IMG/VR virus record: IMGVR_UViG_3300033553_000116
Coordinates: 1 to 64,000 of that record
Source: a virus
Length of the DNA stretch: 64,000 bases
Reading direction: 5' to 3' (one strand)
Shown here: positions 2,275-63,664 of the stretch, in pieces
Position numbering within the stretch: the stretch's first letter is position 1
Layout of the letters: the number at the start of each line of letters is the position of its first letter
Position numbers and translations under genes: made by a program
The notes under the pieces: model-generated
Seen by the model: only the letters and a program-made list of their open reading frames with translations
Database searches by the model: none
What the model was told of the DNA's origin: nothing

Positions 2275-2673
2275 ATGAGTAAACCAGTACCCAGTTTAAG
2301 TGCTGCAGGTTGGCTAGAATCAATAGCTGAAAAAGCAGACGCTATAATGGCTTATTATATTCTCAGTGAATATTCACAAAGCCATTTATATAAAAGCCAC
2401 GTTACATCGTTAACATGGCATATACAACAATACGGTAATGATCCAGGTAGATTAGAAACTAGAGTTGGTGAAGATCTAAATACATATTTCACCCGTTACT
2501 TTGAAAAGGTAGATGTTAATGTCAATACCGATACGCCAAATCCATTAGATCCAGATCGCATAAATCTAACAATTGATATTACTGTTTATGAAGGTAGTCA
2601 GCGATATAGTTTAGGTAAGGCAATCGAAAGCATAAATGGTAAAGTAGAAAAGATACAGACCATTATTAAATAA
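2275..2673 (+). CDS. Conserved Chimalliviridae protein, possibly T4 gp25-like baseplate/sheath initiator
   Basis: Size, YSQS motif and C-terminal beta pattern; synteny. Function inferred. Confidence 0.5.
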   Translation: MSKPVPSLSAAGWLESIAEKADAIMAYYILSEYSQSHLYKSHVTSLTWHIQQYGNDPGRLETRVGEDLNTYFTRYFEKVDVNVNTDTPNPLDPDRINLTIDITVYEGSQRYSLGKAIESINGKVEKIQTIIK

Positions 2674-4727: not shown

Positions 4728-4739
4728 AAGGATATATAA

Positions 4740-5585
4740 ATGGCTATCAAAAAAGAAATAGCAGAACGGGTAAAAGGCGCTGCTCCACTATCTATACCTA
4801 CATCTCTAGCTTTAGAATCATTGTGTGGTTTTGGGGAACATCCCAATGATAAACCATACATACATGAAATTGAAGAGCTGTGGGTTAATTTAAGAACAGT
4901 ATTCCGTAACTTGTATAATTCAGTAGATACCTACGTTAGAGAAACTTCTAATGCAGAACACTTCATAGATGCCATTGTGGAAGACATGCAAGTTTTAACT
5001 ACTGTAATTGAAAACAAAAGTCAGGGTAGAGTTAAGGTGATATTTTATCACTGTAGCTATAAGTCATTTAAGAAAACTTTCCCATATGCTAAATGGAAAG
5101 AGCTTAAAACCGATAAGCAGAAAATTGAACAAAAACTTGAAGATACCGTACTGGATTACTTTCTTAAACATAAAGAGCTTCAGGACAATTTTGATATTAA
5201 AAAGTTTGATGTTAAAATACTAGGACATAAAGTCGCAGCATGCATGCTAACACATTATCCTACTGATTTATTAAGCGGTGATAGCTTTCATAAGTTGAGA
5301 TTACTTGAATCACATACTGGAGCAATTAAACCTAAGGCACACTGGTATACAAAGCTTACTGGCGGACCAGAAAGAACTCGTTTACCATTCAATAGATTAA
5401 CAGTCCAAGTAATGGGGGATAAGAACGTATTATTTTCTATTTTATCAAGACAGTCTAAAGAAGCGTTAATTGAAATGTCTGAGAAAAATAAATGGACCTC
5501 AGTTACTACTGATGCAAAGATTAGGATGAATATCACTAAGCTAGAAGATTCTGATATGAAGCATACATTCATGAATCTACTGTAA
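4740..5585 (+). CDS. Conserved Chimalliviridae protein (gp66-like; possibly PIN/flap-nuclease-like fold)
   Basis: LWVNLRTVFRN, THYPTDLL and LLESHTG motifs; lies between SbcD and ChmC. Confidence 0.65.
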   Translation: MAIKKEIAERVKGAAPLSIPTSLALESLCGFGEHPNDKPYIHEIEELWVNLRTVFRNLYNSVDTYVRETSNAEHFIDAIVEDMQVLTTVIENKSQGRVKVIFYHCSYKSFKKTFPYAKWKELKTDKQKIEQKLEDTVLDYFLKHKELQDNFDIKKFDVKILGHKVAACMLTHYPTDLLSGDSFHKLRLLESHTGAIKPKAHWYTKLTGGPERTRLPFNRLTVQVMGDKNVLFSILSRQSKEALIEMSEKNKWTSVTTDAKIRMNITKLEDSDMKHTFMNLL

Positions 5586-48324: not shown

Positions 48325-49662
48325 ATGGCTATTGAAAACACTCCTCTAATTGAGGAGCTGGTTGATATTTTTACAAACACTCCTCTACCACCTAGCTTTG
48401 TATGGGAGTGTACTATAGTTTTACCTGATAAGGATGTAAAAGTCCAAAAGGTAATTAGCATTGATATTCTTAGAAACTATACTAGTAACTTTGCGGATGA
48501 GGTTATTATAAAACTTTCTCTTCCTGAAGGTTTCTTTAATAGTCAGGTAATGGCTAATAGTGAGAGTTTGATTTTTGAACTAACAAGAACTCCTTTAGGA
48601 GATAGTATCTCCGATAGTATTGAGCCGTATGTTAAACGATATAAGGCAATTATACAAGATGAATCTAATAGCGTCTTGGCTGCACGACATGCTGTATCAC
48701 AGGATCCAGATGCCAATGACTTGTCAAGTACTGTAGAAAAGAACTTTCAGTTAACTGAAGTAGCCTTAGAACAGATACGAGTTTATGAAACAGGTGGTAT
48801 TTTTAGAGATGTTGTTCCGGGGAAGGTAGCTAGATATGTACTTTCCCATATGAGTTCACAGTTGGATCTATCTGTCAAGGACACCATTAAGGGTGTAGAT
48901 ATGGTAGAGCCTGATAATACTTCTGTACAAACCCATGTAGTTATTCCACATGGTACTAGGGTACAAGACGTTCCTAATGTTATCCAAGAGGAATGGGGTG
49001 GTATTTATAATAGTGGTGTCGGCTGTTACTTGCAGGATAATCAATGGTTTCTATGGCCTCAGTATAGAGTAAATAGATTCTCAGAAGAGAAACGTAGCCT
49101 TAGGATTTATAACTTACCTCCTAAAAGGTATCCTAGCATAGAGAAGACCTATAGATTAAATGGCAGTGAATTAGTTATCTTATCTACCGGACAAGCTAAG
49201 CACAAAGATGTAAGTTACGCTGACAAACTTAACTATGGTAATGGTACTCGTTTTACTAGCGCTACTAGGATCTGGGAAGGGTTTGGTACTACTGAAGCTA
49301 ATAAGTTTACTATGATCCGTGCGGTTAATAATACAGAAATTAAAGGTATTGTTAGTAATGATATAGATTATGCCCCAGTTGCACCTAAGAGAATAACCGA
49401 TAACTCATTCTCAGAAGCCAGTAGACTCTCTAGAAGAATGGGGTCAGTAGTTGAGTTTGTATGGGAGAACTCTAGGATAGACCTTATATATCCAGGCATG
49501 CCTCTTAAATTTTATTATTTACATAAGGATGAAATAAAAGAATTGCAAGGTGTAGTGGTTCAAGCACACCACTTTATATACGACTCATCAACTAGTCCTC
49601 AACAGATGAAACATATAACTAATACAGCCCTCTCTATATTTGTAGAGCAGATGCCTGATTAA
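48325..49662 (+). CDS. Baseplate hub/tail-tip protein (phiKZ gp101-like)
   Basis: R.Y...F.D, GVD.V.PDN, GIY..G.G.Y.Q and W.NS...LIYPGMP motifs. Confidence 0.7.
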   Translation: MAIENTPLIEELVDIFTNTPLPPSFVWECTIVLPDKDVKVQKVISIDILRNYTSNFADEVIIKLSLPEGFFNSQVMANSESLIFELTRTPLGDSISDSIEPYVKRYKAIIQDESNSVLAARHAVSQDPDANDLSSTVEKNFQLTEVALEQIRVYETGGIFRDVVPGKVARYVLSHMSSQLDLSVKDTIKGVDMVEPDNTSVQTHVVIPHGTRVQDVPNVIQEEWGGIYNSGVGCYLQDNQWFLWPQYRVNRFSEEKRSLRIYNLPPKRYPSIEKTYRLNGSELVILSTGQAKHKDVSYADKLNYGNGTRFTSATRIWEGFGTTEANKFTMIRAVNNTEIKGIVSNDIDYAPVAPKRITDNSFSEASRLSRRMGSVVEFVWENSRIDLIYPGMPLKFYYLHKDEIKELQGVVVQAHHFIYDSSTSPQQMKHITNTALSIFVEQMPD

Positions 49663-53663: not shown

Positions 53664-54497
53664 ATGCGACAGTATTTAGAAGGACTACAACGTATCTTAG
53701 ATGAAGGTACGTTTCATGGAGATAGAACAGGCACAGGTACTATCTCTCGTTTCGGGGAGCAGTTACGTTTTGATTTGACAGATGGTCTCCCATTGGTCAC
53801 TACTAAGTTCACAAACTTCCGTGCCATTCAGCGTGAACTACTTTGGTTCCTTGAAGGCTCTACTAATAGCATCCGGTTAAATGAAATCGGTTCTAAGATC
53901 TGGGATGGCTGGGCTTTAGATGATGGTGACTTAGGGCCTATCTATGGTAAGCAATGGACTGACTGGGATGTCATCGACAAAGGTGAGGTAGTAACTGATC
54001 TGGAGGCTCTTTTAGAACTTTCTCAAGATGGTACTAGATTAGATGAACTTAGTCTTAATATCAGTTCTATTTTAGATAAGATTGCACTTAAGCCAAATAT
54101 CAATCAGATCCAACAGGTCATTGAAGACTTGCGTGTGAATCCACATTCAAGACGTCATTTAGTTACTGCATGGAACCCATCTGCATTGCCATCTGAATAT
54201 AAACTAACCATGACTAACGGTAAAGTTATTAAAGCTCCACTTACACCACAGGGTAACGTTGCAGAAGGTAAAGCTGCATTGCCTGCATGTCATACCTTCT
54301 TCCAGTTCTACTCTCGACTAATGTGTCTTGAAGAGCGTATGAATTATATCCCGGCTTCTAAAGTAGGGTTATATGCAAAGATCGTGGAATTCGATGAAGT
54401 ATCAGCTCAGCCATTCTTAGATGACACTGAGGCCATGGCTTTATTAGATGAGCATGATGTTCCTAAACATGCACTAAGTTGTCAGATGTATCAGCGT
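53664..54497 (+). CDS. thyA: Thymidylate synthase, exon 1
   Basis: DRTGTGT, ELLWFL, IWDGWA, LGPIYG.QW, SRRH..AWNP, ALPACH and YQR motifs. Confidence 0.95.
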
Positions 54498-54829
54498 TCA
54501 CATAACGAGCGCCTTTTAGCAGTAATGCTAATCGAAGAACATTCTCAAATTGCTGGGAAATCTTGCTAAGCATTTACACCACAACGTAATTTGAAAAAAA
54601 TAAGCGTGACGGTTTTAAAAAGTTAAATGATAGAGATAATCAGCAGCCAAGGGTCCATATAGGATCAAGGTTCAACGACTAGCCTTTGATAAGGTGTAGG
54701 ACCAAGTGGTCCGAAACGGGAAAGCTTCCTACTCATAGAGAGGAAGGTGATATAGTCTACTCTGCATGGTGACATGCAGCTGCACGTAATGGTGCGGGTA
54801 GTGTCTAACGAACACTATTGAATATAACG
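54498..54829 (+). ncRNA. Group I self-splicing intron (IA2-like), 332 nt, no homing endonuclease
   Basis: P1 with U.G at the exon end; P/Q/R/S elements (AAUUGCUGGGAAA, AAUCAGCAG, GUUCAACGACUA, GAUAUAGUC); P7.1/P7.2; terminal G; splicing restores YQR|SSD. Confidence 0.93.
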
Positions 54830-55126
54830 TCGAGTGATTCATTATTGGGCCAGCCCTTTAATATCGCTTCATATGCGCTACTAACTGAAATGGTTGCACA
54901 GTGTGTTAACATGGTTCCAGATGAACTTATCTGGGTAGGTGGCGATTGTCACATTTACAATAACCATCTTGATGCTGCTAAAGAGGTAATAGCCAGACAG
55001 CCTATGGCATTACCTACACTTAAGTTAACTCCAGGCATTACTGATATCTTTGCTTTTGGTGAAGATGACATTGTGTTGGAGTCATATGAACACCACGATG
55101 CTATTAAATTAAAAGTATCGATTTAA
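54830..55126 (+). CDS. thyA: Thymidylate synthase, exon 2
   Basis: SSDSLLGQPFNIASYALLT and GDCHIYNNH motifs. Confidence 0.95.
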   Translation, partial: SSDSLLGQPFNIASYALLTEMVAQCVNMVPDELIWVGGDCHIYNNHLDAAKEVIARQPMALPTLKLTPGITDIFAFGEDDIVLESYEHHDAIKLKVSI

Positions 55127-60136: not shown

Positions 60137-61357
60137 ATGTCAGATTTTAATCTACTAGCTTCAGCAATAGCGGATCTGTGCAATGATGGTAATGTACCAC
60201 TTGGTGAAATAGTATCAACATCAGATATCTTAACGGCATTACCCACGGATGTGGCGCGTATGTTTGAGACACCAACGGCCCTACGTTTAGCAATGACTAA
60301 GTTTGATACGTTATTAAATGTACATGGCTTTACATTTAGTCGTCCATCTGCACACGTCTGGAAATTTAAAAAGATTGAACCATCCGAATCATCTACAGTA
60401 CCTAATCCAGTTATAGGTATCCAGCAGCAATTAGATCGCATAGAAGAAACATTAGATGCCACCAACCAAACGGCTCAGCATAATCGAGAGACTGCTGATA
60501 CAAACTATTCAGTTCTAGCAACTGGCATTGCCGATATACTTAAAATGGTAAAACATATTAATATTTCCACTGCAAAAAGAGATGACATGGGTAGTCTCGC
60601 AGACCTTGCTCTCGACTTGGATGCTAAAGCCGTAAAGACTAGTGAGTTAGTAATGGACCAACTTAGTAAGGCAGATGCTTGGAAAGCAGAATTGCGCGCT
60701 ATGACAAAACATGCTAATAATGCTGTGGCTGGTATGCAAATAGGGTTAGATAGCCATATAGCAGCAACTGCTAAACATCAAGACTGGTTATATAGCGCCA
60801 CTATACAACATCATGAGAACTATATGGGTGGACTTGGAGTGGTGGAAGGTAATATCAAGCAACACTTTTCTAACTTAGTGGAAGGCATTGGTCGACCACT
60901 ATCTAACCCACTAGCCAGTATGTCTCAGGCTAAATATAAAAGATCCTCACCACATTCAAAAGTAGATATAGTGAAAACTGGTAATATTACTACCTTTCGT
61001 GGTCTGGCACATAGTGGTCGTACAACAGAGATGCTACATTATTTGGTAAACCGACGTATTGGAATTGCCAATCAGATACTTTATATCTCTAATGGTGTAT
61101 CTCCCGATAAAATGTGGAAGGATGTTAATGACACATCTAGGCAGATGGGCTTAGATAACCTACCACATGGTAATGTGAAATGTATTTCTATAAACTATAA
61201 TGTACCCTACGGCAGTGAAGACCTAGCAGATATAATCCGTAGACACTCTAACTACATAGTGTTTTTCGATATCCCTATGTCACCCTACAGTAATCTTTTA
61301 TGGTGGGATGCCAATTTCCATGACCGTGAAGTATATATCACAGAGCCATTTATATAA
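60137..61357 (+). CDS. Early coiled-coil protein with a degenerate C-terminal P-loop domain
   Basis: Helical middle; ITTFRGLAHSGRTT, ILYIS and IVFFD motifs. Confidence 0.65.
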   Translation: MSDFNLLASAIADLCNDGNVPLGEIVSTSDILTALPTDVARMFETPTALRLAMTKFDTLLNVHGFTFSRPSAHVWKFKKIEPSESSTVPNPVIGIQQQLDRIEETLDATNQTAQHNRETADTNYSVLATGIADILKMVKHINISTAKRDDMGSLADLALDLDAKAVKTSELVMDQLSKADAWKAELRAMTKHANNAVAGMQIGLDSHIAATAKHQDWLYSATIQHHENYMGGLGVVEGNIKQHFSNLVEGIGRPLSNPLASMSQAKYKRSSPHSKVDIVKTGNITTFRGLAHSGRTTEMLHYLVNRRIGIANQILYISNGVSPDKMWKDVNDTSRQMGLDNLPHGNVKCISINYNVPYGSEDLADIIRRHSNYIVFFDIPMSPYSNLLWWDANFHDREVYITEPFI

Positions 61358-61435
61358 ACCATTATTAAGTATTTTTATACTTCTAAACCTATATTGTGTA
61401 GAAAGTTTATTTCTTCTCCTTAAAGTTAAAGTTAA

Positions 61436-61932
61436 AGCCGTTGGGTTGTCCAAGTCAACCCAACACCTAATTCCCTCCACCCCCTTGTGGAATGATGCAA
61501 TGACCTAAGCATTTAAATGTTGACTTATGTTAACTAAGAGGTAACTCTACATCTACGGATATAGTTTTAAACGCAAGATACCCCAGAACTTCCTTATGAG
61601 TTGTGGGTCACTATCTTGAGGGCTGACGCGGAGCGACCGTGTCCGGAAGATATGCCTTGACCAACTTCCACCCATTCAATGTATTAGTATCTAGCAATGA
61701 TTTACCTCGACGTCTAGGTGCTAGTACATTAATCGGGGGATTGCCCTCCTCGTTATTTCGTTTGCGGACGATTAAGTTGGGCAGTATGAGTTACATGTAC
61801 CCAAATAGGGATAATCACTATGTGTAAACAAATCGTTGGGCGCTTTATTAATGCGTCGGTCCGGGGACTAGATCGCCGGTGAAAGGCTGCACCCATAATG
61901 TTGGTGCTGGGGGAGTTAGCCTACCCCCACCT
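61436..61932 (+). ncRNA. Putative large structured non-coding RNA, family unknown
   Basis: Dense hairpins including a 17-bp stem with 3 G.U pairs and UACG/GUAA tetraloops; GC-richer; no credible ORF. Confidence 0.6.
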
Positions 61933-61940
61933 TATTTTAT

Positions 61941-62015
61941 TCCGAAGTAGCTCAGTGGTAGAGCAGAAGCCTGTTAAGCTTTTGGCCGTTGGTTCGACCC
62001 CAACCTTCGGAGCCA
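61941..62015 (+). tRNA. trnN: tRNA-Asn(GTT), CCA encoded
   Basis: Full cloverleaf: tccgaag/cttcgga, loop ctGTTaa, TTCGA T-loop, G73-CCA. Confidence 0.95.
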
Positions 62016-62022
62016 CACAACG

Positions 62023-62096
62023 TCGGACATAGCTCAGTTGGGAGAGCGGCACCTTTGCGGGTGTGATTGTCGCAGGTTCAATCCCTGCTGTCTGAC
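62023..62096 (+). tRNA. Atypical Ala-like tRNA or pseudo-tRNA (TGC in a non-canonical anticodon loop)
   Basis: Canonical D and T arms; tcggaca/tgtctga acceptor with G3.U70; anticodon loop not 7 nt; no CCA. Confidence 0.65.
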
Positions 62097-62099
62097 ACT

Positions 62100-62403
62100 T
62101 CATTTTCACTTATGGTAACAAGGGTTTACTGTCATTTACCTGCATCCGCCCTAAGTGAAAATTATTCTGTATGGACTTCTACGGAAGTTTGACTTACAGC
62201 TAGCTCCTGGAATGAGAATTAACTCATTGTACGTTTACCCCCGGTAGTTAGATAAATCCAAGTGGTTCTAGTTTGGTCTTGCAATCCATTAACACCCCCT
62301 AAGTAAGTGCTGTTCATAAGAGGCTGGTGTACCTTACGTACTCCGTGGAAGATGTGCCTTAACTTCCACCCATTCATTAGCCAGTCACATTGCGTGACTG
62401 GCT
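62100..62403 (+). ncRNA. Second putative structured RNA
   Basis: ttttcactta/taagtgaaaa, gacttc-TACG-gaagtt, aatgag/ctcatt and gtggaag/cttccac stems. Confidence 0.45.
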
Positions 62404-62420
62404 TATTTATATATTTTTTT
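62379..62420 (+). terminator. Terminator ending the RNA operon
   Basis: agccagtcac/gtgactggct 10-bp stem plus T-rich tail. Confidence 0.7.
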
Positions 62421-62442
62421 ATCTTATTGCTTGGAGTTGACA

Positions 62443-62631
62443 ATGAATAATGTGGTAAATATTACCAGAGCAGCAGATAGACTAGCTGTAAAAAATAGAG
62501 AAGCTTGGGAAAGATTGCAGCCCTTTATTAATATGATTCAAGATGTACGTAAGGGTAACCGAACGGCTAAAGAACAAGAAACAGTCCAGGCTCAAAGAAA
62601 GGGAAAGTTCCTATGGCTAAACAACACATAA
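62443..62631 (+). CDS. Small hypothetical protein
   Basis: GGAG RBS before ATG 62443. Confidence 0.5.
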   Translation: MNNVVNITRAADRLAVKNREAWERLQPFINMIQDVRKGNRTAKEQETVQAQRKGKFLWLNNT

Positions 62632-62932: not shown

Positions 62933-63664
62933 ATGAGTTCTAAATTGACATTAAAGAAATATACTATCGACCCTATAGCCCAAGAAGAAGTTGCTTCTTT
63001 AGAGGATATGGAGAATGCTAGATGTACTACCCAGCATTCCTTGTTTGTTACAGAAGTGGAAGGTGTTCAACACTTCAAACTACATCTAGAGGACATCATG
63101 CCTGAGAAAGCGGCATTCCATGTGATACTTAATAGATTATCTCAAGCACAACAGGGTGATACGTTGGAATTACGTATACATAGCAATGGCGGCAGTACTG
63201 ATATTGGTCAGATTATTATTAACATGATTAATAATGTATTTCCTGGTCGAGCTACTGCAGTCTTGGATAACATGGGTAAATCAATGGGTGCTATTATTTT
63301 CTGTAATTGTCCTAAACGTATTGTGAATGTAAATTCAGACATCATGTTCCATTGGTATAGTGTAGGAGTTAGTGGTAAAGGAAATGAAGTCACTAGTAGC
63401 ATTGATCGAGCAAACGAAGCACTTAGGGATTTATACCAACGTTCAATGGTTGATACGGGTTTTCTAACACAGGAAGAAGTCGATAGATTGTACGATGGTA
63501 AGGATTACCCATTCGGCACAGTAGAGATGTGTCAACGTGGCATTGCTACACATGTACTAGTCAGAGGTATTGAAATCCCTGCAGTACAATACTTAGGATA
63601 CAAGTCTGAATCATTAACAGATGATGACATGGTTATATCCTATCACAGTGAAAGAAATATTTAA
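62933..63664 (+). CDS. ClpP-like serine protease
   Basis: LRIHSNGGS, KSMGAIIF (catalytic Ser), IMFH (His) and G.D motifs. Confidence 0.82.
   Translation: MSSKLTLKKYTIDPIAQEEVASLEDMENARCTTQHSLFVTEVEGVQHFKLHLEDIMPEKAAFHVILNRLSQAQQGDTLELRIHSNGGSTDIGQIIINMINNVFPGRATAVLDNMGKSMGAIIFCNCPKRIVNVNSDIMFHWYSVGVSGKGNEVTSSIDRANEALRDLYQRSMVDTGFLTQEEVDRLYDGKDYPFGTVEMCQRGIATHVLVRGIEIPAVQYLGYKSESLTDDDMVISYHSERNI

Follow-up and report, generated by a model that had tools for sequence, protein, structure and literature searches.

That small RNAs of unknown role, such as RNAC and RNAD of T4, occur in the tRNA gene clusters of phages is a long-established observation, and large surveys keep finding uncatalogued structured RNAs in these clusters. 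GOLLD (RF01998) and ROOL (RF03087), for which no function is known either, are likewise associated with phages and located near tRNAs. RNAC and RNAD are the two small RNAs, of unknown role, that the T4 tRNA region yields (PMC3014915). They correspond to the species 1 and 2 stable RNAs of 139 and 119 nt. In the T4 genome (NC_000866 69500-74500, locus 1409-1672, - strand), rnaD ends in ...GGCGCACC, i.e. in ...CACC with A as the next base, and close to the 3' end of rnaC lies a canonical T arm (CCGGGTTCGAATCCCGG); thus, both T4 RNAs have tRNA-like 3' parts. Two further kinds of element bear on the locus described here. RNase P cuts H-type pseudoknots, including the tRNA-like end of TYMV, in loop 1 and needs a 3' RCCA (PMC12710915). 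Elements of the coremin/xrRNA-C kind begin with a hairpin of 3-5 bp whose loop is YGAD (or YGNNAD), after which come a conserved spacer of ~10 nt, which ends in CUAC and contacts the first loop, and then hairpin 2 (PMC6546385, PMC10321173).

The locus analyzed here is a case of small structured RNAs in a phage tRNA cluster, and what is new about it is a covarying module that occurs in three copies and lies outside the catalogued families. By location and tRNA-like ends, RNAC and RNAD of T4 appear to be its closest analogue. As in T4, its RNA units are encoded on the tRNA strand within a tRNA gene cluster. Unlike the T4 RNAs, to which they show no homology (model R2 reached <=8.4 bits, E 0.5, on the T4 tRNA region), the units are about twice as long, and instead of a T arm and acceptor stem they carry a two-hairpin module with ACC, which is present three times.

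The window analyzed comprises the first 64 kb of a 114,246-nt IMG/VR virus fragment with a completeness estimate of 41%. Judged by its sequence, the source phage is an uncultured phiKZ-like jumbo phage. Its virion protein (48325-49659, phrog_3245) gave ~290 matches among phiKZ-like phages and shares 35% identity with proteins from jumbo phages of Xanthomonas and Burkholderia. The nearest relatives of this protein were found on a 7.6-kb contig (55% identity) and then on a 209-kb MAG contig (47%), and the best identity in cultured phages and IMG/VR was <=35%. The phage thus appears to be nearly a singleton. The stretch was present only in two low-depth DNA runs of one cold-spring metagenome study, at a depth of 3-4 and with zero variants. 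The small RNA run of the same study gave nothing on the stretch, and no RNA run was listed with it.

An ORF-free island of ~1.07 kb (61358..62430, + strand) lies between the gene for a 406-aa protein and the next small genes. No ORF of more than 74 aa was found in 61358-62430, and the small ORFs present there matched no Pfam or PHROG family. The G+C content is raised, amounting to 0.42-0.55 in the island as compared with ~0.37 for the genes around it. The island begins with units A and B, continues with tRNA-Asn, an aberrant Ala-like tRNA and unit C, and ends with an intrinsic terminator. All of these are on the + strand, on which the flanking genes of both sides are also encoded. The 406-aa protein encoded directly upstream (60137-61357) is a complete orphan, as searches of 5.8 billion proteins, of PHROGs and of phage records detected no relative.

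An earlier note had drawn attention to about 500 nt upstream of tRNA-Asn (61436-61932) as densely structured RNA read from the + strand. The + strand of this segment folded with -166.9 kcal/mol (z -3.87), and 0 of 100 dinucleotide shuffles folded as well, whereas the - strand reached only z -1.49. The predicted strand was thus borne out, and the comparison with shuffled controls, which the note had proposed, came out in favor of structure. The signal was uneven: z was -4.9 on the + strand and -0.7 on the - strand for 61436-61680, but -1.4 for 61676-61935 alone. Taken whole, units B and C folded no better than shuffles (z -1.4 and -0.8). The segment is structured as described, but its extent had been set too short, as the structured region runs past the tRNAs to 62410.

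All stems that the note had listed were found. Unit A (61436-61684) consists of a body and a first copy of the module. Its body (61436..61615) is a string of short hairpins and contains a 9-bp stem, gttgggttg/caacccaac (61440-61448/61456-61464), which forms a hairpin at 61440-61464 that is followed by ACC. Further stems of the body are tccac/gtgga (61476-61480/61487-61491), the hairpin AGAG-GUAA-CUCU with a GNRA loop (61537-61548), the hairpin AUC-UACG-GAU with a UNCG loop (61551-61560) and a nested structure (61574-61617) in which AAGAUA/UAUCUU (61574-61579/61612-61617) encloses CCCA/UGGG. Unit B (61678-61940, including its module copy) starts with a 17-bp hairpin (61678..61730; stem 61678-61694/61714-61730) that has exactly three G.U pairs and a 19-nt loop. 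A short G+C-rich hairpin with a U-rich run (61734..61763) comes next; it is terminator-like and possibly acts as a leaky stop after unit A. Several hairpins make up the remaining body of unit B (61764..61879), the folding energy of which is not exceptional. Unit C (62099-62382) is again composed of a body (62099..62316), beginning with a long interrupted stem (62102-62115/62149-62162), and a module copy. The intrinsic terminator (62379..62420), with a stem of 10 pairs, 6 of them G-C (62379-62403), a 5-nt loop and a T-rich run, marks the end of the RNA operon.

The earlier note had missed a module of ~55 nt that occurs three times on the + strand, at the end of each unit. It consists of a purine-rich lead-in (RGGCU), hairpin 1, a linker of 1-2 nt, hairpin 2 and an invariant ACC. 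Hairpin 1 has 7 bp and a 5-nt loop in all three copies, though its sequence is almost wholly different among them. Hairpin 2 has 5-7 bp and a loop of 10-15 nt that contains GCCU. In copy A (61616..61684), the lead-in AGGGC (61619-61623) precedes hairpin 1 (61625-61631/61637-61643, loop AGCGA) and hairpin 2 (61645-61649/61665-61669, with GCCUU at 61654-61658 in the loop), and ACC (61670-61672) is followed by the tail CAUUCA. Copy B (61880..61940) has AGGCU (61884-61888), a hairpin 1 with one C.U mismatch (61889-61895/61901-61907, loop UAAUG), a hairpin 2 with AGCCU (61918-61922) in its loop (61909-61913/61924-61928), ACC (61929-61931) and a U-rich tail of 9 nt that abuts tRNA-Asn. Copy C (62317..62382) has GAGGC (62320-62324), a hairpin 1 with one U.U mismatch (62326-62332/62338-62344, loop CUUAC), a hairpin 2 that can be extended to 7 bp (62347-62351/62363-62367, with GCCUU at 62356-62360), ACC (62368-62370) and again the tail CAUUCA; it stands directly before the terminator. 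A 32-nt repeat ties 61645-61676 of copy A to 62347-62378 of copy C beyond the tRNAs, and copy B shares almost no stem sequence identity with either. ACC directly follows hairpin 2 in each copy, though the rest of the tail differs in copy B; the next base is C in copies A and C and U in copy B, and not the A of CCA.

For an independent test of the module, copies A and C alone were used to build the covariance model R1. This model recovered copy B with 17.7 bits and an E value of 0.001 (0.0002 in another run). On 9 kb, both strands, copy B was the third-ranked match and was matched over its full length; the next match reached 9.2 bits. Our own strict descriptor gave exactly three matches on both strands of the whole 114-kb contig, all of them in the island, and 13 when ACC was not required, namely the three copies and 10 scattered sites; the descriptor is not an independent test because it was written after the copies had been seen. 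In an alignment of the three copies, which was fitted to the model and covers paralogs of one phage only, 94% of the stem cells were paired and 8 of 12 pairs changed on both sides, whereas pairing fell to 42-54% in slid controls with the partners shifted by 1-3 columns. The final alignment was taken from the model, towards whose structure it leans, because MAFFT misaligned copy B. Copies A and C have hairpin 2 in common by descent. In hairpin 1, the first G-C pair and the exact size are kept while 6 of 7 pairs are replaced. Minimum free energy folds of the single copies contained both hairpins in A and C, and in B hairpin 2 together with a 5-bp form of hairpin 1.

A protein-coding explanation of the module was rejected, as there was no Pfam or PHROG match and copies A and C are out of frame; they differ by a 4-nt indel, and no reading frame is common to the copies. 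The complement of the tail conserved in copies A and C, ACCCAUUCA, occurs nowhere else in the contig. Taken together, the locus probably encodes real structured RNA with a repeated functional module.

None of the catalogued RNA families includes this module, and only a single genome is known to carry it. With Rfam 15, at gathering thresholds as well as at E<=10 on 61300-62460, only the two tRNAs matched. The best other matches on 61300-62460 were Qrr with 20.9 bits (gathering score 50) and YrlA with 15 bits (gathering score 69), the latter running across the tRNAs. ARAGORN detected no tmRNA. The earlier note's failure to match the region to tmRNA, RNase P, SRP or a ribozyme therefore agrees with Rfam and ARAGORN, which gave only tRNAs, and the cmscan comparison suggested there had the same outcome. 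In a blastn search of the island against 50,697 phage records, nothing but the tRNAs matched. The 16-mer common to copies A and C had 38 matches in IMG/VR, all in unrelated contexts without the hairpin. Structured IUPAC patterns, two of them run on IMG/VR, one on metagenome contigs and one on genome contigs, returned only chance matches, which scored <=14.9 bits with model R2 and were high in G+C; diverged homologs may be missed because the patterns fix part of hairpin 2. Model R2 found nothing in 5 cultured and 32 IMG/VR jumbo-phage records. The search for homologs and covariation that the note had called for thus gave a divided result, with no homolog in the other genomes searched but compensatory changes among the three copies.

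The bases before hairpin 1 (AGGGC, GAGGC and AGGCU in copies A, C and B) are complementary to the loop of hairpin 2 (GCCUU, GCCUU and AGCCU). This candidate pseudoknot involves 4-5 complementary bases in all three copies, with duplex energies of -7.4, -7.7 and -7.0 kcal/mol and loop-shuffle p values of 0.077, 0.0085 and 0.011. Because the GGC:GCC core is invariant, the pairing is unprovable by covariation. The gap between the loop strand and the 3' strand of hairpin 2 is 1 nt in copy B and 2 nt in copy C, which would be tight for a classical H-type knot. The chances that the loop of hairpin 2 forms a pseudoknot with the upstream GGC appear to be about even.

Such a fold would resemble the tRNA-like structure of TYMV and the biotin-aptamer model substrate in that the last hairpin, the loop of which is a candidate partner for a strand upstream, is directly followed by single-stranded purine-C-C. 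Unlike in RNase P substrates of the TYMV type, loop 1 of the module holds a whole 7-bp hairpin, the fourth base of the tail is C or U rather than A, there is no T arm, and the module is internal to a predicted DNA-phage transcript. Since the module is pseudoknot-like and recurs next to viral tRNAs, it also brings to mind an exonuclease roadblock of the coremin/xrRNA kind. The module, too, is a repeated element that combines a hairpin with a candidate pseudoknot in a viral tRNA region, and exonuclease protection is a possible common role, an idea that overlaps with the protection step of the explanation which we prefer (see below). The features that define coremin are absent from the module, however. 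Its hairpin 1 has 7 bp, none of its loops (AGCGA, CUUAC, UAAUG) is YGAD, the spacer between the hairpins is 1-2 nt and lacks CUAC, the loop of the second hairpin would pair upstream instead of the loop of the first hairpin pairing downstream, and with ~55 nt as compared with 27-30 nt the motif is twice as long. Membership of the coremin/xrRNA-C group was thus rejected on loop, spacer, pairing direction and length, and we attach very little probability to a roadblock of this kind.

Both tRNA genes lie between units B and C. tRNA-Asn (GUU; 61941..62015) has an encoded CCA and scored 70.9 bits with Rfam; module copy B ends 9 nt before it. The second, aberrant tRNA (62022..62098; Rfam tRNA, 44.4 bits) has no CCA, and ARAGORN gave it no name. 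Its D and T arms are canonical, base 73 is C, and the loop closed by the anticodon stem, UUUGCG, has 6 nt and includes UGC. The molecule carries G3.U70, which is the alanine identity pair, and might represent a tRNA-Ala in decay, a decoy or a tRNA-like domain.

At the start of unit A, 61425-61467 (GUUAAAG..GCCGUUGG, the 9-bp hairpin and ACC) resembles the anticodon-to-T-arm half of tRNA-Asn (61973-62006). The two share an identical 5-bp T stem, GUUGG/CCAAC, and their local alignment had a p value of 0.012 against shuffles. A partial duplication of a tRNA seems to have left this segment behind, a hint that parts of the locus arose by tRNA duplication. One might go further and regard the entire locus as decaying tRNA gene duplications and other junk, in which any structure would be a legacy or an accident and would serve no function today. 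The likeness of 61425-61467 to the 3' half of tRNA-Asn and the aberrant second tRNA are consistent with this idea, and selection cannot be shown across genomes because the phage is a singleton. Decay is hard to reconcile with compensatory changes that keep both hairpins in three copies despite sequence divergence, with the exact dimensions kept by hairpin 1, with the strand-specific folding signal and with the lack of any tRNA model match inside the units even at E<=10. We therefore consider it improbable that the locus is devoid of function.

The bodies of the units showed no significant likeness to each other (A vs C, p 0.06), so that full-length paralogy of the three units gained no support from this comparison. 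The part they have in common is therefore the 3' module and not the whole RNA. The earlier note had proposed a new large ncRNA class or several small RNAs, and had pointed to GOLLD and ROOL. Several small RNAs fit better, because the units have only the 3' module in common while their bodies are not significantly alike; the word "class" cannot stand with three paralogous copies in one phage and no second genome found to carry the structure. The analogy to GOLLD and ROOL holds for location only, since neither covariance model matched even at E<=10, and the locus is modular instead of being one conserved large fold. A single GOLLD- or ROOL-like ncRNA of ~1 kb, with tRNA-like domains lying inside it, would agree with a long, ORF-free, structured phage region beside tRNAs and with long-range pairs in the minimum free energy fold, e.g. 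AGCC (61436-61439) with GGCU (61622-61625). Such pairs are few, however, and compete with the conserved module, and the repetition of the module at 3' ends together with the terminator-like site 61734-61763 argues for separate units. There is, in our view, only a small chance that the locus encodes one large RNA.

Three different bodies with one conserved 3' module point to a reusable signal for maturation or stability and not to a single RNA gene. The explanation that we prefer, with a chance that we put just short of even, is that the locus encodes three modular small RNA units which are matured together with the tRNAs and use the module as their 3' signal. The segment flagged by the earlier note would then be the first two of three non-coding units, each made up of its own body and the common 3' module, and probably co-transcribed with tRNA-Asn and the Ala-like tRNA up to the terminator at 62379-62420. 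Both this transcription and the processing sites are ones that we infer. RNase P would cut at the 5' end of tRNA-Asn, 9 nt after module B, and transcription would terminate after module C. Both events would leave 3' tails, which host 3' exonucleases might trim back until they stop at the module with its C-rich tail. The module would in this way serve as a signal for 3'-end maturation and protection, and the products would be stable RNAs of ~250 nt with tRNA-like ends, whatever role the released RNAs might have.

As to how the module could act, a compact helix stack followed by A-C-C may imitate positions 73-75 of the acceptor end of a tRNA. The P15 loop of RNase P pairs with tRNA bases 73-75, and RNase T cannot pass 3' C residues. 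Direct recognition of the module end, by RNase P or by the CCA-adding enzyme, is another possibility. The module stack has no T loop, which counts against mimicry of a tRNA end, and this mechanism of marking and protecting 3' ends is possible but doubtful. We think it decidedly unlikely that the module is, in addition, a new kind of acceptor-end mimic, made of a pseudoknotted helix stack and an ACC tail, that serves as a portable tag, to the effect of "process me like a tRNA", on several unrelated RNA bodies with separate functions, such that host RNase P, 3' trimming enzymes and the CCA-adding enzyme would excise, finish and stabilize the tagged RNAs. No gene for a CCA-adding enzyme, Ro/TROVE or RtcB was found in the 114-kb fragment (~41% of the genome). 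Should enzymes of tRNA processing indeed be put to use by the module, this would illustrate how phage ncRNAs mature without enzymes of the phage's own, and the module could offer a compact tag for RNA engineering.

The same arrangement could be read as a mere leader, spacer and trailer of a tRNA operon, acting in cis to guide the folding and processing of the two tRNAs or to insulate them, with the excised pieces being degraded. The region does lie on both sides of the tRNAs and on their strand, the distance from the end of module B to tRNA-Asn is 9 nt, and the unit bodies are not conserved between copies. A structure of ~900 nt for two tRNAs, however, far exceeds the needs of a leader, module A is 270 nt upstream of the tRNAs and module C 220 nt downstream of them, and a module kept beside the terminator is hard to explain by tRNA processing alone. 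A purely cis-acting function is thus unlikely.

The terminator also invites a regulatory interpretation, as small pseudoknot aptamers beside terminators are a common riboswitch layout. The modules would then be pseudoknot aptamers that sense a ligand or factor and, as attenuators, regulate how much transcription continues into unit B with the tRNAs and into the genes that follow. Module C is directly followed by the intrinsic terminator, module A by the terminator-like hairpin 61734-61763, and hairpin 2 of copy B is G+C-rich and succeeded by a U-rich run. No riboswitch family matched, no alternative antiterminator pairing was found, and three copies in one non-coding operon would be unusual for a riboswitch. 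Attenuation is accordingly very unlikely, and maturation of separate units with the module as their 3' signal remains the explanation that we favor.

Upstream of the island, no recurring promoter-like word was found, and a sigma-70 scan was empty on the + strand. The word GCCATTTATATA(AA) stands at the end of the 406-aa gene (61345-61358) and occurs again at 2381-2394 (+) and 4731-4744 (-); the flanks of the three sites have no clear promoter-like consensus in common.

Two further genes of the window deserve mention. Downstream of the island, 62933-63664 encodes a ClpP-family protease (PF00574; PHROG "head maturation protease", 5e-32), the nearest relatives of which are 43-45% identical. Its closest cultured relatives are proteins of Campylobacter phages (35% identity) and not of phiKZ-like phages, and it may therefore be an acquired accessory protease. 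Farther upstream, the thymidylate synthase ORF (53664-54569) contains, in its 3' end, the start of a group I intron (54488-54779; Rfam RF00028, 75.3 bits), and downstream of the intron lies a 102-aa ORF (54818-55126). The arrangement of thymidylate synthase gene and intron is of the td type, as in T4.
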